Source: an uncultured Candidatus Saccharibacteria bacterium (GTDB lineage: Bacteria; Patescibacteriota; Minisyncoccia; UBA6257; JAKLIH01). Taken from it: DNA of 64,000 bases. The notes beneath the pieces are model-generated. The model made no database searches. It was given only the letters and a program-made list of their open reading frames with translations, and was not told the DNA's origin. Position 1 is the first letter of the stretch, and each line of letters starts with the position of its first letter. Positions 12,752-38,958 of the stretch are shown piece by piece. The stretch spans positions 11,679-75,678 of the forward strand of contig CAYYXO010000002.1 in assembly GCA_964475745.1 (NCBI GenBank), written 5' to 3'. The translations under genes were made by a program, and so were the position numbers.

Positions 12752-13606
12752 ATGATAGAAAAAGATTTTTTGAAAAAAGGCTTGGTTTTTATTTTGATAG
12801 TTTTGAATGTTTATGTTTGAAGCTTGGTGGCTAATTTTTTGTTTTTTAAAAGAAGCGTTAATTTTTTAGATGTTGGCCAAGGAGATAGTGCCTTGCTTGT
12901 TTTTAAATCTGGCAATATTCTAATAGATGCAGGGAAAAGAAATTATGTTTTAAAGCCATTAGCAAAAACATTGCCTTTTTTTGACAAGACAATTGACTTG
13001 GCTATAATTACTCATGCAGATACAGATCATTTCGAAGGACTTTATTTCATTTTAGATAATTATAATGTGCGACTGGTAATGATAAACGACTTTCATACAA
13101 AATCTGAAAGCTATAAAAAACTTTTAAATAAAATAGCAGAAAAAAACATTAAGGTGGTTTATGGTGTTTTTGGTGCAAAAGTTTTAGGGGAAGATTTTAA
13201 TATTGAAGTCTTGTTTCCACAAAAAGAAGAAATTGACATTAAAAAAACTAACGAAAATTCAATTGTAGCGAATGTTTTTGCTTTAAAAAATAACTTTTTA
13301 TTTACTGGCGATATAAATGATAAAATTTTAGAAAAAATTTTAAAAAGGAATGTGCACTTAGAAGTTGATTTTTTGAAATTGCCTCATCATGGTGCTAAAA
13401 ATTCTCTGAATAAAAAGATTTTAGAATACTTTAACTTTAAGAAAGTGATTGTTTCTGTTGGCAAAAATAGCTATGGCCATCCCAACAAAGAGATCATCGA
13501 AATGATAGATTTTTTTAATAGAGGGGTTTTGAGAACAGACGAATTAGGCACAATTAGATTTTCTGAGTCAAAAGAGGGCAAAAACAGTGTTTTTATTGGC
13601 AATTAG
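12752..13606 (+). CDS. ComEC C-terminal-like metallo-beta-lactamase domain protein (about 284 aa), encoded as a separate ORF
   Basis: FLDVGQGDSALL, HADTDH and LPHHGAKNS match the MBL-fold signatures of the ComEC C-terminal domain. It is in a different frame from 11344..12750 and has its own ATG at 12752. Confidence 0.7.
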
Positions 13607-20726: not shown

Positions 20727-21296
20727 ATGCCGGAAAATATTTTTGAGAACCTACTATCTTTTGCAGATTTACAAGAAGCAGCTAGAGAAGTTGTTCCTCT
20801 GCTTTTAAATGACTGAACTTTAGATTTGTTGTTTTACCTTCGAATTGCTGGGTTTGTTTTAGCAGTCATTTTTTTACTAGCAGCCTTGCTTTTTTACTTT
20901 AAAGTAAAAAAATTAAGAAAGCCAAAACCAGCTAAAATAGGGCTTAGCTCTCTTGATAAAGACTCGCTTTTAAACGAAAAAAATCTAAAAACTATTGAGA
21001 AAAAAATAGCAGATTATATTGCTTTTGATAATATTCTATATTGAAAGCTTGCTTTAGCAGAAGCAGATAGTTTGTTGGGTAAAGTTTTGGCAGAAATTGG
21101 TTTTAAGGGAAGTGATATCTATGAGAAATTGTGTAATGCCAAAAATCATATTGATATCGATTTAGAAGTGCTCAAAGATGCCCATATAAAAGTTTCGGAT
21201 ATCTTAGATGACAACAACTATCTTTTAACAAGAGGAGAGACGGAGCAATTAATAGCGATATATCATAAGGCAATTGAAGATTTGAAGAAACTATAA
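20727..21296 (+). CDS. hypothetical membrane protein (about 189 aa, 2 in-frame TGA)
   Basis: The ATG at 20727 is in frame with the 20826 and 21072 ORF segments across TGA. It has one TM helix and no recognised domain. Confidence 0.4.
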
Positions 21297-21299
21297 CAG

Positions 21300-21328
21300 T
21301 TGACAAGCATAACTTTTTATGCTATAAT
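21300..21328 (+). promoter_or_regulatory. consensus sigma70-like promoter TTGACA, 17 nt, TGcTATAAT
   Basis: Perfect -35 and -10 hexamers. A hairpin terminator lies only about 15-45 nt downstream (21345..21375). Confidence 0.55.
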
Positions 21329-22249: not shown

Positions 22250-22277
22250 TTGACTTTTGATTTAAATATGCTATAAT
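22250..22277 (+). promoter_or_regulatory. putative 23S/5S rRNA promoter TTGACT, 16 nt, TGcTATAAT
   Basis: Read directly from the sequence, about 250 nt upstream of the 23S 5' end. Confidence 0.45.
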
Positions 22278-22529
22278 ATAAAACAGTTAACTAATATTAA
22301 AAGTTCATATTCTTATGAATAAAAGAGATTCAAAAAACAGTTTAAAATTCAGGTGGTAAAAACACAGAGTTTTTCTTTGTGATTATACCGCTTGTCAAAA
22401 GCGGTTTTTTAATTCTCTAATAGTATTGGTTGATCTTTGAAAAAAGAATAAGGGTAAAATGTATTTTCATTGGAAAATTAAATAAAAAACTTAATTGAAG
22501 TTTCTTCAATGCTTTAATTAAGATGAGGA

Positions 22530-25590
<3,061 letters not shown>

Positions 25591-25637
25591 TATTAAAGTA
25601 TATATTTTATTCCTTATTCTTTTCAAAAAATTAAATT

Positions 25638-25746
25638 GGGCTGGTGATTAATTGTGATATGTCCCACTCGTTTCCATTTCGAACACGATAGTGAAAGTAT
25701 CATGACTCGATAATACTCGCAAGGGGAAAGTAGAGTTTGCCAGCCC
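25638..25746 (+). rRNA. rrf: 5S ribosomal RNA
   Basis: Helix I GGGCTGG/CCAGCCC and the conserved internal CCCACTCGTTTCCATTTCGAACACGATAGT. It sits directly after 23S. Confidence 0.8.
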
Positions 25747-30005: not shown

Positions 30006-30152
30006 ATAAAAGCAATACTTCAGTAGGAAGTGTTCTTTTAAACTTGAAAATTTAGATATACCACAACTAACAAATTCAAAGTTTTTTAGTTGCTCTAAAG
30101 GTTTATTTTTTTTGAATAAATTTTGTATATTTTATATACAGTTGTTTTTTTT

Positions 30153-31672
<1,520 letters not shown>

Positions 31673-31799
31673 TTTTAGGAATCTTTGTTTAATTTGATTC
31701 GTCAAATTAAACTATTCCAAGGTCGTCCCGAATATTTTTTAAATATTTTGGAACTTGTTAAACTAAACCTGCTGGAGCAACTAAAAAGTTTTGAATCAA

Positions 31800-31837: not shown

Positions 31838-31949
31838 GAAACGGTGTGTTGGCTTGCAAAATGACATCTTTTGTGGTAGAGTATCTATGTTTGAAATTTG
31901 CTGTTTAAAAGATGAAAAGGCCGGCGGGCATACGCAGGAGGAAATTTTT

Positions 31950-32426
31950 ATGAGTATTATTGATGATAGTTTGGTTCAGGAAGCGTTAGATTTATCTGGT
32001 CCGACAATTGAAACCATACTGAAAAACCCCAAGTCAACTTGGGGGCCAAAGTATGTCGAAGTTTTTATTATTGAGCGAGACGATGTTAGCGCATATACTG
32101 CCGTTATAGGAGAGAAAGAACCCTGGGATCCTTCCTGGGGAGAAGAGCTCGACTATGATTTTTTGTTTGTAGCAGAACAAAAGGCCAATGCTTCTCTTAG
32201 AGAAAAGGCGGACACGTCTTTTCTAATTGAGCAATCCCCATGGTTGCTTGAAGAAGGAGAATTTTTGTATCCCGGAGGCGTCTATTACGGCGGGGTTGCC
32301 GTTGGTGTTTCTGGAGCAAAAGGTATTGTCGATGAAGGAATAGCAAAAATCCTGATCAGTGCTATTGTTATGCTCGCAAAGCAGAAAACGCAAGAAAAGA
32401 TAAGAAATGATGATTACCAAGTGTAA
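31950..32426 (+). CDS. GlcG/DUF336 (heme-binding-like) family protein (about 158 aa), foreign-looking
   Basis: PGGVYYGGVAVGVSGAKGIVDEGIA matches the DUF336 GG..GAIGVSG...D..A signature. A canonical SD (CAGGAGGAAA) lies 7 nt before the ATG. All four Trp codons are TGG, it contains no TGA, and it is locally GC-richer. Confidence 0.55.
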   Translation: MSIIDDSLVQEALDLSGPTIETILKNPKSTWGPKYVEVFIIERDDVSAYTAVIGEKEPWDPSWGEELDYDFLFVAEQKANASLREKADTSFLIEQSPWLLEEGEFLYPGGVYYGGVAVGVSGAKGIVDEGIAKILISAIVMLAKQKTQEKIRNDDYQV

Positions 32427-32438
32427 CATCGAAAAAGC

Positions 32439-32475
32439 AAAAGGAACTTGGCGCGACGCCAAGTTCCTTTTTTGA
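32439..32475 (+). terminator. rho-independent terminator
   Basis: Hairpin aaaaggaacttggcg-cgac-gccaagttcctttttt. Confidence 0.65.
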
Positions 32476-32574
32476 TTTTGCAGCATATGTGCCAATATCG
32501 CCACCAGATATGGACAAAATAAGATTTTTATGATATAATATAAATAGAAAAATAGATTGAATTAGGAGGTAAAA

Positions 32575-32997
32575 ATGTATGAACTTTTTGAAAAATTATT
32601 AGAGGCCACCAAAAAGGGTCTTGTAAAATGGAAAAAAGTTGGAGAAAAAGTCGTTGTTCCAGGTTATACAGAAGGGTTTCAGCAATATGAAGCTATCATA
32701 GAAGAAAAACGAATAAAAACTTTTGTTCAGCTTAAGGCCGTTGTTAAAAAAAAGGGGTTATTTAATAAAAGAAGCGTCGAAGAGGCTAGTTGGGTGTTTG
32801 GTGTTTTTCTCAATGATTTTGCTCTTATAACCTCAAACGAAGAGGCTTTGAGGAGCGATATTATGGTAACGAGCTCCTTTCATGAGCTCAAAATGGTAGA
32901 TTTCTTTTATTCGCTAGAGGAGGCAGTTCGAGAAAAAGATCTACTCGAGTCCATTGACGCAGATCTTACTGAATTATTGTCCTTGTCGATTAAGTAA
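32575..32997 (+). CDS. hypothetical protein (140 aa), foreign-looking
   Basis: A perfect SD (TAGGAGGT) lies 8 nt upstream and an extended -10 (TGATATAAT) further upstream. It contains no TGA, and Trp is TGG. Confidence 0.4.
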   Translation: MYELFEKLLEATKKGLVKWKKVGEKVVVPGYTEGFQQYEAIIEEKRIKTFVQLKAVVKKKGLFNKRSVEEASWVFGVFLNDFALITSNEEALRSDIMVTSSFHELKMVDFFYSLEEAVREKDLLESIDADLTELLSLSIK

Positions 32998-33024
32998 ATA
33001 ATCACAAAAACCCTACAACGAAGC

Positions 33025-33062
33025 GTAGGTAGCTCAATTAATCTTAATTGGGCTTTTTTATT
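33025..33062 (+). terminator. rho-independent terminator
   Basis: Hairpin agctcaattaa-tc-ttaattgggct followed by TTTTT. Confidence 0.5.
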
Positions 33063-33246
33063 TCCCTTTTTTGATTTAGAACTTGTTTTTTGTTTTAAAA
33101 TTTAGTATATTTTATTCAAAAGAAAGTTTCGATAAAAGCTTAAGCGATGGCGGCAGTAGTAGCGGAAAATAATAAAATCAAAGTTGTTTTGAAAAAGGAG
33201 GGGCAATTGCATGTCCCTCTATTAAATCAAAATAAAATTTATAATC

Positions 33247-34446
33247 ATGAAGTGGAAAATTATAAAAAATGATAATCCATATAAAGAATATTCTGATTTT
33301 GAATATTTGTGGGTTGATATTTTTTTAAGTAAAGGCTTATTATATAGACAAGATTTAGTTAAAATTTTAAAGCATTTTGACATAAATTTTGTTGAAAAAA
33401 ATTGAGAAGAAAATATTTCTTTAGGAGAAATGGGCACGGTGCTGCATGGAGATGTTAAAAAAGATGTGTTGTTGCCGTTTCTACAAAATTATATACATCA
33501 AAATTACCCAAAGATATTTGGCTTTGAAGAGGCAAGTAAAATATATAATGCTTTGATAAAAATAGACAGTCAGTTAAATATTATAAAACTTTGGTTTGCT
33601 TTTGAATGCGATAAATACGATAAAAATTTAAAAAGTTTTTTGGAAGAAAAACTCCTTGACTTGACAAAGGGAGCTAGAGTTAAAGATAATGCTGAAATTG
33701 GGTTAAGCGAAGAAAAAGATAATTATTGTCAATGATGTGTGGTTGATATATTAACTCAAATGTATAGATTATCTTTTATAAACGAAGACATCAAAAAAAA
33801 TTATTTTGAAGAAAATTATGATGAATTTCGTTATCAATGATTGATAATTATTTTATGCAGAGAATTATTGCCAAGAAAAGATATGTTGGCATTTTTAAAG
33901 CATTATGACATGCGGTTTTTTGGAATAAATTGAAAAAATAGAATTAAATTAGAAGAAATGGGTTGGGTAATTTTGCATGATGTTGAAGAAGATGATCTTT
34001 TTGATTTTTTGTCAAATTATTTAAAAGAAAAATATCCAAAACTTTTTTCTTTTGAGGAAGCATGTAAAATTTTTGACGCATTGTTTTATTTAAAAAATGA
34101 AATTCAAATTATGGAAGTGTGGTTAAATATGGCTGATGAATCTCCGTATGTTTCTTACATGAGAGAGCAACTCGATTATTTAAAAGAGCAAAGAGAAGGG
34201 GGGGTTTTTGACGAATCGCCAAGCATGGAAGAAAAAAGAAAAGAAACAGGTCTTTTTAGAAGAACAGCGCAAGATGTTATTTTGGCTTTGTATGAATTAG
34301 CCATGAAAAACTATTTTAAAAAGAAACAAAAGGCAAGTCCTAGTCATCTTTATGGCAATGAAAGCTCTAAAGGCCATGATGACTCGGCAGCGGTTAAATG
34401 CATGCAAGAATATCTATCAAGAAAAAAAGCTGAAAATGACTTTTAA
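33247..34446 (+). CDS. hypothetical protein with an internal tandem duplication of a roughly 130-aa domain (about 399 aa, 6 in-frame TGA)
   Basis: One frame runs from the ATG at 33247 through ORF segments 33430 and 33958. Unit 1 reads ...EEMGTVLHGDVKKDVLLPFLQNYIHQNYPKIFGFEEASKIYNALIKIDSQLNIIKLWF... Unit 2 reads ...EEMGWVILHDVEEDDLFDFLSNYLKEKYPKLFSFEEACKIFDALFYLKNEIQIMEVWL... The units are clearly homologous. A basic, Ser-rich C-terminal tail follows. Confidence 0.5.
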
Positions 34447-34606
34447 TGCTCAGTATGATTATTTATTGATAAAGTAAATATTCACAGAGTAAACAATCGA
34501 CAAGCAAATGACTTTTTCTAAATTAACCCTGTAAATAATAGCTTTTTTGGAGGGGGTTGATTTTTAAACTTATTTTGACTATACTTTATTTAGTTAAAAA
34601 AGAAGT

Positions 34607-35317
34607 ATGGCAACAACAAAAAGGTATTTTTACTCAAATGAGTTTTATCATATTATTTTAAGAGGTATTGATGGAAAAACTTTGTTTTTAAACGACCAAG
34701 ACTATTTTAGAATGATCAATGGCATGTTTGTTTTTAATGATAAAGGGTTAATAGGTTCTTCTTTTCGACACAAAGGATGTCCAAATGATAGATTTGAAAG
34801 AAAAAGAAAAGGGCCTTTGGTAAATATACATGCTTTTTGCTTAATGCCAAATCACATTCATTTTTTGTTGGAACAAAAGGTTGAAGGGGGTCTGTCAAAA
34901 TTTATGTTAAAAATAGGAGCCGGCTATGCGGCTTTTTTTAATAATAAATATAAAAGAAAAGGCCATTTGTTTCAAAGCAGATTTAAGTCGGTTTTAATAA
35001 AAGATGATGATCAGTTGGCAGTAATTTTTTCTTATATCCATACAAATCCGGTTTCTATAATAGAACCTAATTGAAAGGAAAAGGGTATAAAAGATTTTAA
35101 AAAAGTTAGAAATTTTATTGAAACCTATAGGTGATCAAGTTATGCTGATTATTTAGGTAACAAAAATTTTCCAAATTTAACAAAAAGAAATTTTATGCTT
35201 CAAGATCAAAATCAACGCGCTTGAAGAAATTTCGTAGAAGACTGGCTAAAGTATAAGGCAGAGTTGTTTGAGCGTTTTTTTAAAGACAAAGGCAAAGATA
35301 GTTATTTATTGGAGTAA
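34607..35317 (+). CDS. IS200/IS605-family Y1 (HuH) transposase-like protein, RAYT/COG1943-like (about 236 aa, 3 in-frame TGA)
   Basis: HuH motif LMPNHIHFLL, the catalytic-Tyr region FSYIHTNPV, and C-terminal YR-TGA-SSYADY matching the WSSY box. It uses TGA for Trp, so it is host-adapted. No tnpB is adjacent. Confidence 0.7.
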
Positions 35318-35346
35318 AAATCTGAAAAAATTAAAAGCTAAAGAAA

Positions 35347-35375
35347 GAAAGGACGACCCCAGGGGTCGTCCTTTT
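35347..35375 (+). terminator. rho-independent terminator after the transposase-like gene
   Basis: Hairpin aggacgacccc-a-ggggtcgtcct followed by TTTTT. Confidence 0.65.
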
Positions 35376-35539
35376 TGAAAAAAGCAGCACTGTTTTGTCC
35401 ATTATAGCACTGGCGATGCTCATTGGGTGATTTTTCCAAAAAAGCTTCGCCTCTTTGTAAAGTTCACTATCGGTTATATCCATTTCGTCATCTTTTTTAA
35501 TGTTCTTTCGATAAAGTTGATTATATTATAGCCTTTTTT

Positions 35540-35790
35540 ATTAAATATGTCAACACCATGCTTAGCGAGTTAAATTTCAAAGCCCATCATGGTGTTGGCC
35601 ATCATTTCAGCTTAATCAATTACAACGTAGCAAGGCAACGTTGTATATTCTCCTTTGATTAATCAGGCCTAACGCTACCTGGTAACGGAGGGAGGGAGTG
35701 GTTTGTGGGGATATTTGGTGGTTGTTTTATATTACGTAGCGGGAGGGGATCTTGGTGTTATTTTAAATTATGCAATGCGAGTGGTTGTAT
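35540..35790. other. GC-richer structured non-coding element with inverted repeats and G-tracts
   Basis: Inverted repeats caacaccatg...catggtgttg (35551..35596) and tacaacgt...acgttgta (about 35618..35645). A G-tract cluster follows: GGAGGGAGGGAGTGG..GTGGGG...GCGGGAGGGG (35690..35745). It contains no ORF. Confidence 0.35.
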
Positions 35791-35841
35791 AAATGATATA
35801 AATATGCTAAAATTGATTTAAATAGCTTAATTGTATTATTT

Positions 35842-36783
35842 ATGAATGATATATCAAAAAAAAAGGAAGAGTTTCTTTTAAAAATTATGAGTTCAACAAA
35901 CGCTGATAAATTTAAAAGATATTTAGGAAGCCCATTGCGATATGCAGGAGGTAAAACATTGGCTGTCGGGTATATTGTAAAATTGTTGCCTAATAAAATA
36001 GATAGAGTTGTTTCGCCTTTTTTAGGGGGGGCTTCAGTTGAAATTGCCTTGGCAAAAGAGCTGGGACTTGAAGTTATCGGGTATGACATTTTTGACCTAC
36101 TGATAAATTATTGGAAGAACCAAATTAATAATCCTGAGCAGCTGTATCAGAATTTAAGAATATTGGCAAACACAAAAAATAAATATCAAGAGGTAAAAAA
36201 TATTTTAAAAAATATATGAAATAAAAATGATGGCCTGTTGAAAAATGATTTTTCTAGTTTAGAATTGGCAACTTATTATTATTTTAATCATAACTTAAGC
36301 TATGGACCTGGATTTTTGGGATGGATGTCGTCAAATTATTTAGATAATAAAAAATATGATTCAATGTTGAAAAAAGTTAAGAATTTTAAGGTTTGTAATT
36401 TTCATGTTCGTACATCAAGTTTTGAAGAAGCAATCCCGATGCATAAAAAAGATTTTTTATATTTGGACCCGCCTTATTATTTAGACGGAGACAGTAAAAT
36501 GTTTAAAGGGATATATCCAATGAGAAATTTTCCAATACATCACAATGGCTTCAACCACGAATTATTATTTAATTTGTTAAAAAATCATGATGGCGGTTTT
36601 ATTTTGTCATATAATGATTGCGAATGGGTAAGAAAAAAATATAAAAATTTTAAAATTATAGATATTGAATGGCAATATACAATGGGACAAGGGGAGACAA
36701 GAATAGGTAAAAACAGATTGTCAAGAAATTATGACAATAACAATGTAAAAAAATCTCATGAATTATTAATTATAAATTATTAA
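35842..36783 (+). CDS. Dam-family (D12-class) N6-adenine DNA methyltransferase (about 313 aa, 1 in-frame TGA)
   Basis: N-terminal SAM motif LRYAGGKTL (a Dam motif I-like FxGxG/YAGGK) and the catalytic motif IV LYLDPPYY (DPPY). The 35842 and 36238 segments are in one frame across the TGA at 36217. Confidence 0.8.
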
Positions 36784-36798
36784 ATATAAAATAGCGAT

Positions 36799-37398
36799 AT
36801 GTTAATTAAAAAAGTAAAAACAGCTTTTAAAATAGCAGACGTTGAGCTTGTAAAGAATACAACAAAATTAAAATTTAATTATTTGTCCACCATAAAAGAT
36901 GAAAATAATAAAATTTTACCAAAGGACATTCTTACTAAAAATTACGCAAGAGTTTATCTAATTGTTGTTGACGGAGAGATAAAAAAAATAGGGGCGTCGC
37001 AAGATAAGGGGGGAATGAAGGGGACGTTGAGTATTTATAAAGATGGTGGCGTAAAAGGAAGGCCAAGCATAAGAAGTTTCGGCATCTGGTATTTTTTGTA
37101 TCGTACTGCGATGCAAGGTAAAAAAATTGAGTTTTATATGATATATCATGACAATTTCAATTTTGAGATTAAGGGTTTGTTACAAACATATCAAACAACA
37201 TTAGCGAGCATAAGCTGTAAGCTTATTGAATATTATTGTGTTAAAGATTATTTGTCGATGGAAAACAATCATTATCCAGACTGGAATGTTCAAGAACAAG
37301 CAATGGATTGGCCAGAAGAGGTTAAAAGAGAACATTCTAGAATAACAGCAGGTAGTTTAAATAATAAATCTAAGAGAAAAAAAATGAAAATGGCATAA
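36799..37398 (+). CDS. hypothetical protein, possible PD-(D/E)xK nuclease partner of the MTase (199 aa)
   Basis: It lies directly downstream of the Dam-family MTase. LPKD-(15 aa)-VVDGEIKK fits a PD...(D/E)xK spacing. No other family was recognised. Confidence 0.35.
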   Translation: MLIKKVKTAFKIADVELVKNTTKLKFNYLSTIKDENNKILPKDILTKNYARVYLIVVDGEIKKIGASQDKGGMKGTLSIYKDGGVKGRPSIRSFGIWYFLYRTAMQGKKIEFYMIYHDNFNFEIKGLLQTYQTTLASISCKLIEYYCVKDYLSMENNHYPDWNVQEQAMDWPEEVKREHSRITAGSLNNKSKRKKMKMA

Positions 37399-37412
37399 CA
37401 ATAAATGATTTA

Positions 37413-37754
37413 ATGCCGTTTCTTAAAAGCGACCAAAATCCAAATGGATCTATAATTAGTTTGTCGGATTTGTATCTGTCTATTTGTTATGGCATGAGAT
37501 ATGAACCAGCAAGTGGTTATTGACTTTCTAACGCTGATTTTTATAGTTTTACCCCTGATACAGATAAAATAGGCAGTCAAATAAGGTATTATCTTCAAGT
37601 TCCAGATATTGAAGAAATTATGGAACCAATAGAGCCTGAAGATGAAGGCAATGAAGAGGAGGAGGAAGGGGATGGCGAAGAAGGGGATTTTGAGGAAGAA
37701 TTGTTGTACGAAGAAGGTGGCCTTGAGGAAGAAGAAAATGAAGAGACTGAATAA
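37413..37754 (+). CDS. small protein with an extremely acidic C-terminal tail (about 113 aa, 1 in-frame TGA)
   Basis: MPFLKSDQNPNGS...GYWLSNADFYSF...IEPEDEGNEEEEEGDGEEGDFEEELLYEEGGLEEEENEETE. About 35 of the last 45 residues are D or E. It is not in the ORF track because of its internal TGA. Confidence 0.4.
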
Positions 37755-37778
37755 AATAGTAAAAAAGATGAATTGTGA

Positions 37779-37812
37779 AAAACACTGGCTTTAAAAGCCA
37801 GTGTTTTTTTGT
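37779..37812 (+). terminator. rho-independent terminator
   Basis: Hairpin aaacactggctt-taaa-agccagtgttt followed by TTTTT. Confidence 0.65.
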
Positions 37813-37862
37813 TTTCTTTGAAATTATGCTATAATAGGAGCATATAAAGTTAATATTACATT

Positions 37863-38830
37863 ATGGACAATTGTCAAATAAAATTTTGTCAAAACAATAA
37901 GCTGATTAATAAGTTTTATTTTCTGGTTAATTTAGCTAAGGTGGCTAAGTGAAAAGATAAATCCATGGGGATTGATTTTTTTTCTGGCTATAAAATAAAT
38001 AAAATTTCTAAAAAGGAAATTGAAAAATTTAAGAAAATTTTCAAAAAAGTAGAATATTGAGATATAGAAAGAGTTTTTTACCAAGCTAACACTGAAGCAG
38101 GCGCTTTAAAAGGATTGTCAAAATATCTTGCAAAAAGTGATATATTGGAATTGAAAAAAATATTTAATTTTTTTGAAAAAGACTTTCTAACTCTTTATAA
38201 TAGTATTGATAAAAAACATAGCAAAGAATTAAAGGATCTATGAAAAAAGACTGAATACCAGAAGATTTTAAAAAAGCTGATTTATTTATTTGGAGACAAA
38301 AAGAAAAAATATAATCTAAAGGTAAAGATAGTATTTGAAAAAAACTTTGATGGTGTTTTTAGAGGCACAGTTTATGACGAAAATATTGTTTTGGAGGTGG
38401 CTGACTTAAAAGATAGATTTGATTTGTTGGAAAATATTATTTTTGTTTTGCTACATGAAATTACTCATGTATTTGTAAAAAGTAATGAGCTTATAAAATT
38501 TACAATAAATAAACTCGGCATTACTCGAAATACTGTTAATGTGATTAAAAAATATAATATTGATTTTGATAATTTTGCAGAAGAAATTTTGATCAGAATG
38601 TTTCTTACAAGAGGGTATTTTCGTGATAAAAACAAAGAACGTTTTTTAAATAATAAAAAAATAACTTGAAAACATGCAATAAATCAAAATCAAATACAAT
38701 TGCATTGTTTTAGTATGATGCTATATAAAAGTATGCATAAAGATGTTGAAAAATATGTTAAAAAAAACAAGAAAATTGACGATGAATTTTTATCAAAAAT
38801 GATAAAAATAATTAAAAGCAAGGTTAAATA
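37863..38830 (+). CDS. hypothetical HExxH-motif (putative zinc metallopeptidase-like) protein (about 322 aa, 3 in-frame TGA)
   Basis: LLHEITHVFV is an HExxH motif in a Lys-rich protein. It has an ImmA/IrrE- or SprT-like flavour, but the family is not identified. Confidence 0.45.
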
Positions 38831-38958
38831 AAAAGAGCGGAGAAGGCAATTTTTTTGGTTAAATTAGGCTAGTAAATGCTAGCTTTTTGAGGTATTGCAT
38901 AAAATTAAAATTGTTGATACATTGAGGTTGGCTTAATAAAAATTTTAAAAAATGTATC

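Follow-up and report, generated by a model that had tools for sequence, protein, structure and literature searches.

The window analysed here, a 64-kb stretch of the genome of an uncultured Candidatus Saccharibacteria bacterium, carries on its plus strand a RAYT-like Y1/HuH tyrosine transposase gene (34607-35317), which encodes 236 amino acids followed by a TAA stop codon when TGA is read as a sense codon. The spacer behind it contains several GC-rich hairpins, the 5' remnant of an unrelated gene together with a promoter, and a cluster of G-runs that precedes a methyltransferase gene. The assignment of the transposase is based on motifs, Pfam and a family alignment. The three motifs on which the original prediction relied are all present in the open reading frame, with HIHFLL at residues 83-88, YIHTNPV at 143-149 and YR[TGA]SSY at 174-179; residues 83-85 form the HuH triad and Tyr143, within YIHTNP, is the catalytic tyrosine. 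Both NHIH (residues 82-85) and YIHTNP (residues 143-148) coincide with invariant columns of the family, and every family-invariant column, including H83, H85 and Y143, is retained in the window protein. The Y1_Tnp domain of Pfam (PF01797, named "Transposase IS200 like") matches with E=2.7e-10 and 40.9 bits for a cut-off of 23. The NCBIfam model NF047646 (REP_Tyr_transpos) gives 51.6 bits (E=8.8e-14) and does not reach its curated cut-off of 80, the protein being related to this equivalog but lying outside it. While the direct sequence match to 4ER8, the structure of the E. coli RAYT bound to a REP hairpin, is marginal (E=0.38), 4ER8_A is the top structural match (E=2.9e-6, TM 0.68, rmsd 4.8) of a model that was built not for the window protein itself but for its relative P0004 (52% identical; pLDDT 75.5), and the TnpA proteins of IS608 and ISDra2 come next (E~2e-5, rmsd 7-8). 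The window protein combines NHIH, FQ and YIHTNP with an SS tail, that is, the class-2 signature described by Quentin et al. 2018 (PMC6006769). It may thus be assigned to the class-2 (Y---NP) Y1/HuH proteins of RAYT/TnpA_REP kind and not to IS200 TnpA, and the open reading frame is most simply read as an intact member of a Patescibacteria-wide class-2 subfamily (RAYT/TnpA_REP-like, ~235 aa, with a C-terminal W-SS-Y tail). Hence the RAYT-type identity first proposed is borne out by the Y1_Tnp score above cut-off, the class-2 motifs and, through the model of the relative, the best fold match to 4ER8. No second copy of the transposase was found in the 64-kb window; relatives encode two to three divergent Y1 paralogues per genome.

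The three in-frame TGA codons of the gene (35072-74, 35132-34 and 35219-21) are informative with respect to its history. When the protein is aligned with 26 homologues, codons 156 and 176, both TGA, coincide with tryptophan columns that hardly vary, and the third, codon 205, with a Cys/Trp column. Tryptophan is encoded by three TGA and one TGG in the transposase gene, as compared with 90 TGA and 35 TGG in the core genes, and the GC content amounts to 29% versus 31%, respectively. In-frame TGA codons are also present in the closest relatives, namely the loci L020/L094 (contig JAKLIH010000010) and L095/L096. Since in-frame TGA codons make a recent arrival from a standard-code donor impossible, the transposase gene is a host-adapted, long-standing resident of a lineage that reads UGA as tryptophan, in agreement with the earlier suggestion, drawn from the TGA codons alone, that it was not a newcomer.

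We then consider the surroundings of the gene in other Patescibacteria. A palindrome common to both flanks of the gene is found at 74 of the 81 homologous loci, whereas the window locus has no such pair; in most relatives, it stands ~18 nt ahead of the start codon and again 0-20 nt past the stop. This palindrome is GC-rich and genome-specific; a third copy of it occurs in frame inside the coding sequence, ~190 nt from the start, in 48 of 72 loci, and additional copies more than 400 nt away were seen in 7 of 72. Paralogues within one genome each possess different hairpins, and four to five perfect-palindrome copies surround the gene in L020/L094 and L095/L096. Over the family, the flanking pair is inverted in 34 cases and direct in 25, with 13 ties; the idea of an always inverted pair was dropped on this count. 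Because pair orientation is mixed, the layout alone cannot separate a REPtron from IS-like ends. In most relatives, the layout of the family is that of a REPtron-like cassette.

In the window, family-type copies lie only downstream of the gene, at +30, ~+300 and ~+345 nt. The first of them, hereafter hairpin T (35348-35374), is a perfect 13-bp GC-rich palindrome, AAAGGACGACCCC A GGGGTCGTCCTTT, situated 30 nt after the stop codon, at the usual place of the downstream copy, and it doubles as a predicted bidirectional intrinsic terminator; it did not figure in the initial description of the locus. Hairpin T is kept in L020/L094, where 22 of 25 positions are identical to the L020 hairpin and one pair has changed in a compensatory manner from A-T to G-C, while the proteins are only 51% identical; it departs from the REP consensus of the relatives by two mismatches. 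The second copy is inverted repeat 2 (35615-35652, stem 35621-35645), whose arms TACAACGTAGC (35621-31) and GCAACGTTGTA (35635-45) pair over 11 bp with one mismatch around a 3-nt loop. It has in common with the hairpins of relatives an ATCAAT foot and an AACG...CCNGG...CGTT frame, differs from the consensus by one mismatch and has an interrupted outer stem. The third copy, ATCAGGCCTAACGCTACCTGGTAACGGAGGGAGGG (35660-35696), is decayed, its degraded right arm forming the first of the G-runs. Nevertheless, when the 64 kb are searched with the L020 palindrome by Smith-Waterman local alignment, this copy comes out on top (25 of 32 positions identical; score 29, background 11.3 +/- 2.0); it has two mismatches to the consensus but reaches only 9.9 bits with a structure-aware model.

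That model, a covariance model, was built from 12 hairpins of the closest relatives (TGA=Trp) alone, the window never having been part of the training. Over the whole 64 kb, it ranks repeat 2 (35615-35652) first with 22.9 bits (E~2.5e-4) and hairpin T (35343-35379) second with 22.8 bits (E~3e-4), these E-values being rough owing to a short calibration; all other window hairpins score 15.4 bits or less. The consensus of the relatives, AACGNNNCCNGGNNNCGTT, with up to two mismatches matches the window four times for 0.29 expected, three of these matches being located in the first 340 nt behind the stop codon. In addition, the window contains 13 perfect inverted repeats (at least 10 bp, at least 4 G/C, loop of at most 40 nt) compared with 0.7 +/- 0.9 in dinucleotide shuffles, two of which fall in the 520-nt spacer after the transposase gene. 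On the upstream side, no hairpin relic was detected in 34447-34606, either at three mismatches or fewer or by the covariance model; neither an internal nor an upstream cognate palindrome exists at the window gene, and the two-sided flanking of a REPtron is thus missing. Taken together, these comparisons support hairpin T and repeat 2 as candidate cognate hairpins of the family type. The original prediction had pointed to two inverted repeats as possible cognate sites. Both repeats are where it placed them, although its figure of about 250 nt downstream was loose (repeat 1 begins 234 nt and repeat 2 304 nt past the stop codon), and its functional proposal holds for repeat 2, to which hairpin T must be added as the other of the two best model matches in the window, but not for repeat 1, which finds no match with the REP covariance model and stands outside the REP family.

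One may wonder whether the transposase-like gene is simply an orphan, domesticated for a host function, next to ordinary terminators or chance palindromes. Hairpin T is shaped and placed like an intrinsic terminator, GC-rich terminators and GC-rich palindromes can look alike, and the upstream and internal copies are missing. Likewise, no copies of the family-type hairpins were found in the 64 kb outside the locus, no further copies of repeat 1 or repeat 2 beyond chance, and no REP-like repeat family, the window offering only AT-rich chance repeats and other GC-rich hairpins that are unique terminators. As a result, dispersal, the defining behaviour of REPs, is not apparent within the window. 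We consider this explanation rather unlikely, however, inasmuch as the two best matches of a model blind to the window both adjoin the gene, about ten other terminators score at least 7 bits lower than these two, the decayed third copy gives the best local alignment with the L020 palindrome, and hairpin T has been kept, with its compensatory change, at such a low level of protein identity.

Between hairpin T and repeat 2, the spacer is not a single non-coding element as had been proposed, for it contains a truncated gene and a promoter. The minus-strand stretch 35372-35500 consists of a leader of ~17 nt and the first 38 codons (ATG at 35483) of an unrelated small-protein gene, recognized by its homology to residues 1-39 of the 148-aa protein P0122 (59% identity; E=2.4e-4 in a search of 1.8 billion proteins). 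By tblastn, the similarity reaches 60.5% over 38 aa (E=1e-9), and the nucleotide identity with the locus L098 is 79% over 133 nt. The homology does not extend beyond the foot of hairpin T; an apparent open reading frame of 50 aa (35483-35331) continues through the hairpin, and the remaining part of the P0122-like gene is absent from the 64-kb window. A perfect sigma-70 promoter sequence, TTGACA-17-TATAAT (35525-35553, minus strand), points at the gene remnant and hairpin T. Only three 12/12 matches of this kind occur in the window, and near-consensus matches in this genome stand mostly in front of genes; the predicted transcript would measure ~170 nt. No similarity was found between the L098 region upstream of P0122 and the promoter and repeat 1 region of the window, and the window spacer holds no remnants of the two small minus-strand genes that follow the L020/L094 transposase. 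The remnant is the 5' end of a foreign small gene with its own promoter, and its junction with the transposase unit coincides exactly with the foot of hairpin T.

The portion further downstream, 35540-35800, might at first sight be taken for a structured ncRNA, a riboswitch-like leader or a G-quadruplex (G4) regulatory element acting, for example, on the downstream methyltransferase gene. Two clean hairpins, an unusual density of G-runs and a gap of 290 nt before the methyltransferase gene are in keeping with such a proposal. Inverted repeat 1 (35551-35597) has perfect 10-bp arms, CAACACCATG (35551-60) and CATGGTGTTG (35588-97), separated by a 27-nt loop, and its left arm shares positions with the -35 box of the promoter on the minus strand. 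The G-run cluster GGAGGGAGGGAG ... GTGGGG ... GGGAGGGG (35688-35748, plus strand) partly overlaps the decayed hairpin arm; with five G3+ runs, 35690-35789 is surpassed among the 100-nt stretches of the window only by the 16S gene, which confirms the G-tracts as a feature of the sequence. The G-quadruplex suggested for them does not follow. No motif of four G3+ runs with loops of at most 7 nt, or of at most 12 nt under relaxed settings, exists on either strand of the window, and the fourth run of the cluster lies 30 nt from the third. We also considered GGAGGGAGGGAG as a Shine-Dalgarno (SD) sequence for a 38-aa GTG open reading frame (35705-35821) and rejected it because SD sequences are not used in this genome (1 of 48 genes; 16S 3' end without CCUCC). 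As regards an RNA, Rfam 15 at gathering score returned only rRNA and tRNA genes over the whole window, and at E<=10 the region 35250-35900 yielded nothing but sub-threshold terminator look-alikes centred on the terminator hairpin. The folding of 35540-35800 shows no excess stability over shuffled sequences (MFE z-scores of -0.48 for plus-strand RNA, -1.13 for minus-strand RNA and -0.93 for DNA). The spacer found no match among phage records (distant blastn). The exact pattern of repeat 1 in viral contigs gave one unrelated coding match only, and that of repeat 2 in JGI metagenome contigs one unrelated contig of 60% GC, a chance match in a scan that is uninformative as the locus itself was not recovered either. 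Given that parts of the stretch are accounted for as hairpin relics, a dedicated RNA or G4 element appears highly unlikely.

How does this locus compare with described systems? E. coli TnpA_REP (RAYT, YafM; PDB 4ER8) resembles the family in its single-domain HuH/Y1 fold, 4ER8 being the structure closest to the model of the family, in its class-2 Y---NP tyrosine motif, and, going by the genomes of relatives, in its low copy number and divergent paralogues; as in the E. coli REPtron, the gene of the relatives is bracketed by a genome-specific palindrome with few extra copies nearby. In contrast, the window family is ~70 residues longer and ends in a conserved W-SS-Y tail, its sequence similarity to the E. 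coli protein is marginal and it remains below the cut-off of the NCBIfam RAYT model. E. coli REPs are GTAG-footed and imperfect, whereas the hairpins considered here are perfect palindromes with loops of 1-5 nt in an AACG...CGTT frame; moreover, the bracket is broken in the window, and no copies of its hairpins were found in the 64 kb beyond the locus. Further counterparts may be found in the TnpA_Y1 subclass 2.1 or TIRYT (PMC6006769), with ~238 aa, FQ in place of WQ, Y[IV]H.NP and an SS tail, a likeness judged by motif only and not with the HMMs of Quentin et al. Subclass 2.4 (PMC6006769) has REP copies in frame inside the tnpA_REP gene, and the flanking repeats of the TIRtrons of Di Nocera et al. 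2013 (PMC3733652) can be self-complementary. Yet subclass 2.1 was reported without REP-like flanks (PMC6006769), while the Patescibacteria family has them in ~90% of loci, and, as a further difference, the internal copy of the family lies ahead of the HuH motif. Patescibacteria are absent from both studies (PMC6006769; PMC3733652). As for an autonomous IS200/IS605-type insertion sequence, with LE/RE subterminal hairpins flanking TnpA and the downstream hairpins as its right end, the shared HuH/Y1 fold and hairpin-directed single-strand DNA chemistry, the PF01797 domain and its name, the rank of IS608 and ISDra2 TnpA among the structural matches and the hairpins flanking the gene in relatives speak in its favour, but this reading, already disfavoured, is scarcely credible in view of a tyrosine motif that is Y---NP instead of Y---Q (PMC6006769), a length of 236 aa instead of ~150, a single copy in the window with neither an upstream hairpin nor a nearby tnpB gene such as these elements often carry, the divergent paralogues of one genome each with its own hairpin, and the absence here of the other hallmarks of the IS200/IS605 group, namely obligate dimers, direct-orientation LE/RE ends and multi-copy near-identical elements.

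Accordingly, we would place the locus with a known system, here in decay, and see in it neither a new RNA nor a new G-quadruplex element. As a whole, we regard it as probable that an intact RAYT-type gene of a REPtron-like family has long resided in a UGA=Trp lineage and that its cassette has eroded to downstream hairpins and a foreign gene fragment. The upstream and internal palindrome copies would have been lost from the window cassette, leaving downstream three family-type hairpins, one perfect and serving as a putative terminator, one nearly intact (repeat 2) and one presumably decayed and grading into the G-runs. By analogy with E. coli TnpA_REP and with the TnpA of IS608 and ISDra2, the enzyme would bind its hairpin in single-stranded DNA and cut at the foot, the tyrosine forming a 5'-phosphotyrosine link, and would then rejoin the ends in such a way that hairpin-bounded DNA is moved or rearranged. 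A breakpoint located at the foot of a hairpin, like that of the gene remnant, is the scar that such a cut-and-rejoin event is expected to leave.

At the level of the locus, the outcome is mainly one of clarification, what looked like a hairpin and G-tract element being accounted for by a terminator, relics of hairpins and a gene fragment beside a RAYT-type gene. To our knowledge, what has been learned about RAYTs and REPs comes nearly all from Proteobacteria and Cyanobacteria, and the tiny, streamlined genomes of Patescibacteria are not expected to keep such elements. The gene is nevertheless present, together with hairpins that co-vary, in hundreds of Patescibacteria genomes, and one of the hairpins often lies inside the coding sequence; the UGA=Trp copies of the transposase gene help to date its residence in the lineage. 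It is tempting to hypothesize, even if the balance leans slightly against it, that the ~235-aa Y1 family across Patescibacteria represents an undescribed REPtron variant, in which one genome-specific perfect palindrome has three set positions, one in the 5' leader, one in frame within the coding sequence at ~63 codons from its start and one directly behind the stop codon, the three copies varying in concert from genome to genome and from paralogue to paralogue. If true, the concerted change of three copies would imply either their continual homogenisation by the enzyme itself or a hairpin-based autoregulation, and the window would show the REPtron variant in the course of its decay in a lineage with UGA=Trp, where a rearrangement has left its scar at a hairpin foot. 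Finally, should this layout hold, the family would provide a compact natural system in which to follow the co-evolution of a Y1 enzyme and its hairpin.

The open reading frame at 34607-35317 (plus strand) encodes a Y1/HuH transposase of 236 aa and contains three in-frame TGA codons. It passes the Pfam threshold for Y1_Tnp and scores 51.6 bits against the NCBIfam RAYT equivalog, under the 80-bit cut-off. A search of 5.8 billion proteins returned 668 matches; among the matches listed, all the named ones belong to Patescibacteria, lengths run from 222 to 292 aa (leaving out the window's own truncated ORF) and identity does not exceed ~55%, setting aside L001 and L002, which are identical contigs of two further samples. 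The best match among species-representative genomes reaches 54%, and the nearest relative is located on contig JAKLIH010000010. In the alignment the transposase retains all invariant family residues, including both His of the HuH motif and Tyr143. By its motifs (NHIH, FQ, YIHTNP, an SS tail) and its length of ~236 aa it has the signature of class-2 TnpA_Y1, on the TnpA_REP side, and not that of IS200, which is Y---Q (PMC6006769). Profile searches of PDB sequences show weak similarity to either group (ISDra2, E=0.011; 4ER8, E=0.38). The predicted structure of P0004, a protein 52% identical to the transposase (pLDDT 75.5), is closest to E. coli TnpA_REP with its REP hairpin (4ER8, E=2.9e-6, TM 0.68, rmsd 4.8), followed by the TnpA of IS608 and ISDra2. 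The class-2 signature and the P0004 model support the original prediction of a RAYT. No second Y1 gene was found in the 64-kb window.

The window has a GC content of 30% and carries nearly all its genes on the plus strand; these are broken up when TGA is read as stop and form long ORFs when it is read as a sense codon. The 38 core genes (for example within 298-29913 and 38959-63603) contain 90 TGA to 35 TGG codons, a ratio compatible with TGA as Trp and not with TGA as Gly, and TGA aligns with invariant Trp. UGA-to-Trp reassignments in Patescibacteriota were first reported in a recent preprint (family JAKLIH01, genus GCA-2747955, class Minisyncoccia; preprint 2026, 10.64898/2026.05.24.727570). 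The nearest relative's contig, JAKLIH010000010, gives that family its name, and the window probably derives from one of these rare code-4 lineages of Minisyncoccia. When the transposase is aligned with its homologues, two of its TGA codons coincide with columns that are Trp almost without exception, and the third with a column of Cys or Trp. Since its Trp codons (3 TGA to 1 TGG) and GC are like those of the core genes, and since its nearest relatives also have in-frame TGA codons, the transposase is host-adapted, as had been proposed. This genome does without Shine-Dalgarno sites: only 1 of 48 genes has one, and CCUCC is absent from the 16S 3' end (31640-31700). Near-consensus sigma-70 promoters precede many genes. 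A perfect AGGAGG site is present at one gene alone, which starts at 32575 and is probably of foreign origin. The rRNA genes share the plus strand but are unlinked, and their order is odd: 23S-5S (22522-25745) comes first, followed by ~4.4 kb with four protein genes and then by 16S (30151-31676); both large rRNAs have insertions relative to the Rfam models, one of which, in 16S, measures 79 nt where the model has 31. Two perfect TTGACA-N16/17-TATAAT promoters are located on the plus strand, at 12981-13008 and 21300-21328. The second is in the spacer that separates a gene with its end at 21296 from the next gene; the 23S gene begins ~1.2 kb further on, and a near-perfect promoter (22250-22277) is nearer to it.

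What surrounds such genes in the Patescibacteria family was examined at 80 loci from species-representative genomes and three from metagenome assemblies (for example L014 2950-3700, L021 2962/3189 and L095 1686-2603, out of ~80, L014-L096), by comparing the 250 nt before the start with the 250 nt after the stop. In 74 of the 81 loci with enough flank the two sides share a palindrome that is rich in GC and almost perfect (stem 10-18 bp, loop 1-5 nt). The median distance from the end of the upstream copy to the start codon is 18 nt, the downstream copy mostly begins 0-20 nt past the stop, and their relative orientation is mixed across loci. The palindrome sequence varies by genome and also among paralogues of one genome. 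A third copy occurs in frame within the gene, ~190 nt from the start, in the length-variable region ahead of the HuH motif (48/72 loci), and extra copies more than 400 nt off lie inside the 3-kb flanks of 7/72 loci. This arrangement is REPtron-like, that is, a RAYT gene bracketed by cognate REP palindromes, and the in-gene copies recall TnpA_Y1 subclass 2.4, which has in-gene REP copies. In the literature searched, of which coverage is incomplete, we found no link of RAYT, REPtron or TnpA_REP to Patescibacteria and no description of a three-hairpin layout around a ~235-aa Y1 gene.

The closest relatives show how such hairpins are built. In L020/L094, the JAKLIH01 relative, whose protein is 51% identical to the window transposase and has three TGA=Trp codons, the palindrome ATCAATCCCAACGGTACCAGGTACCGTTGGGATTGAT stands before the gene and directly after it, a variant sits 50 nt before the start, and a second hairpin, GGACGGCCCCTGGGGCCGTCC, lies past the downstream copy. 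The same palindrome occurs once more in L020, 2.7 kb off and beside another palindrome of the same build, ATATGTTCGGAACCAGGTTCCGAACATAT; this fused pair (L020 205-262), right after a terminator, is a BIME-like composite. In L095/L096 (protein 52% identical) the palindrome is CAATGGAACGCCGCCSGGCGGCGTTCCATTG, with three copies before the gene and two after. Between the proteins P0004 and P0019 identity is 79%; their hairpins have different stems but share the frame AACG-N3-CC-N-GG-N3-CGTT, which in relatives' hairpins is often accompanied by an ATCAAT foot.

Three elements downstream of the window gene resemble these hairpins. Hairpin T, a perfect 13-bp palindrome at 35348-35374, 30 nt past the stop, is shaped like an intrinsic terminator for both strands and conforms to the frame of the relatives apart from two complementary changes at its ends (GACG...CGTC); it is identical to the second L020/L094 hairpin at 22 of 25 positions with one compensatory A-T to G-C change, a conservation far above that predicted by 51%-identical proteins. 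The hairpin of repeat 2 (35615-35652) has an ATCAAT foot and departs from the frame at a single position. A decayed copy at 35660-35696 is the best local match to the L020 palindrome in the 64 kb (25/32 identical, score 29, against a background of 11.3 +/- 2.0 and a best score of 19 outside the transposase locus). Searched as AACGNNNCCNGGNNNCGTT with up to 2 mismatches, the frame has 4 matches in the window where 0.29 are expected, a number that none of 100 shuffles reached; three are these elements, and the fourth, inside a foreign-looking ORF at 32115, is probably chance. A covariance model built only from 12 relatives' hairpins and run without filters over the whole window placed repeat 2 first (22.9 bits, E ~2.5e-4) and hairpin T second (22.8 bits, E ~2.8e-4); these E-values are rough, from a short calibration, and the ranking is the evidence. 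All other window hairpins, including ~ten terminators, scored at most 15.4 bits, and the decayed copy only 9.9, as expected with a broken stem. Window scans found no hairpin upstream of or inside the transposase gene and no further copies of the downstream hairpins elsewhere in the 64 kb. Thus, of the two inverted repeats originally proposed as cognate sites, repeat 2 holds, joined by hairpin T, which had been overlooked, whereas repeat 1 (35551-35597) is unmatched by the model of the relatives' hairpin family.

Repeat 1 belongs to a non-random class (13 such repeats in the window against 0.7 expected), and its left arm overlaps the -35 box of a minus-strand sigma-70 promoter (35525-35553), which matches 12/12, as do only two others in the window. 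This promoter is aimed at the 5' fragment of an unrelated gene (35372-35500, minus strand) and predicts a ~170-nt transcript stopping at hairpin T; repeat 1 may be an operator left from the truncated gene. The fragment, which appears as an ORF of 50 aa, is 59% identical to residues 1-39 of the 148-aa protein P0122 (tblastn E=1e-9; E=2.4e-4 in a search of 1.8 billion proteins). Homology breaks off at the foot of hairpin T, to within ~3 nt, and the remaining 110 codons are absent from the window. At the DNA level the fragment has 79% identity, over 133 nt, to a contig of 39% GC (L098, 403-535; GCA_036681025.1), where a good AGGAGG site is present that is degraded in the window copy. Such identity, unexpectedly high for genomes so different, suggests a fairly recent horizontal transfer. 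The G-runs begin with the degraded right arm of the decayed copy (...CGGAGGGAGGG instead of ...CGTTGGGATTG) and continue past it as GTGGGG and GGGAGGGG. They form no G4 motif and are not a ribosome-binding site, this genome making no use of Shine-Dalgarno sites; nor, by folding analysis, do they belong to an RNA that folds stably, so that neither the G-quadruplex nor the ncRNA first suggested is upheld; the hairpins and G-tracts themselves are confirmed, but in a composite spacer rather than a single element.

The wider setting, between the 16S gene and dcd (31.8-38.9 kb; 31854-38831), looks like a mosaic of acquired DNA, with Trp codons at 10 TGA to 18 TGG against 90:35 in core genes. Besides the RAYT gene and hypothetical genes it holds a 42%-GC ORF (31950-32426), the gene at 32575 with its perfect AGGAGG, a Dam-like, D12-class type II methyltransferase (35842-36783) and then a 199-aa protein (36799-37398) with a faint restriction-enzyme match, a weak candidate. 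Immediately before the transposase gene, an ORF of 399 aa (33247-34446) is an internal tandem duplication of ~176-aa units with a TGA (Trp) at the matching position in both halves; it is weakly similar (pairwise E=0.001; 28% over 72 aa) to P0122, whose family includes the truncated gene on the far side of the transposase.

In the simplest account, the lineage would have inherited a hairpin-bracketed RAYT-type gene, as in JAKLIH01 and the source of L095/L096; the bracket would then have decayed in this genome, leaving one intact hairpin kept as a terminator, one nearly intact and one relic, and the transposase unit would have become joined to the foreign gene fragment through a rearrangement at the terminator hairpin's foot. 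Cutting and joining of this kind is known from E. coli TnpA_REP and IS608/ISDra2 (PMC6006769; PMC8266576), and by analogy with them we infer that the window transposase may have acted likewise. The window locus is a partly decayed example of the known RAYT/REP kind, and the three-hairpin layout of this Y1 family across Patescibacteria is the more interesting lead.
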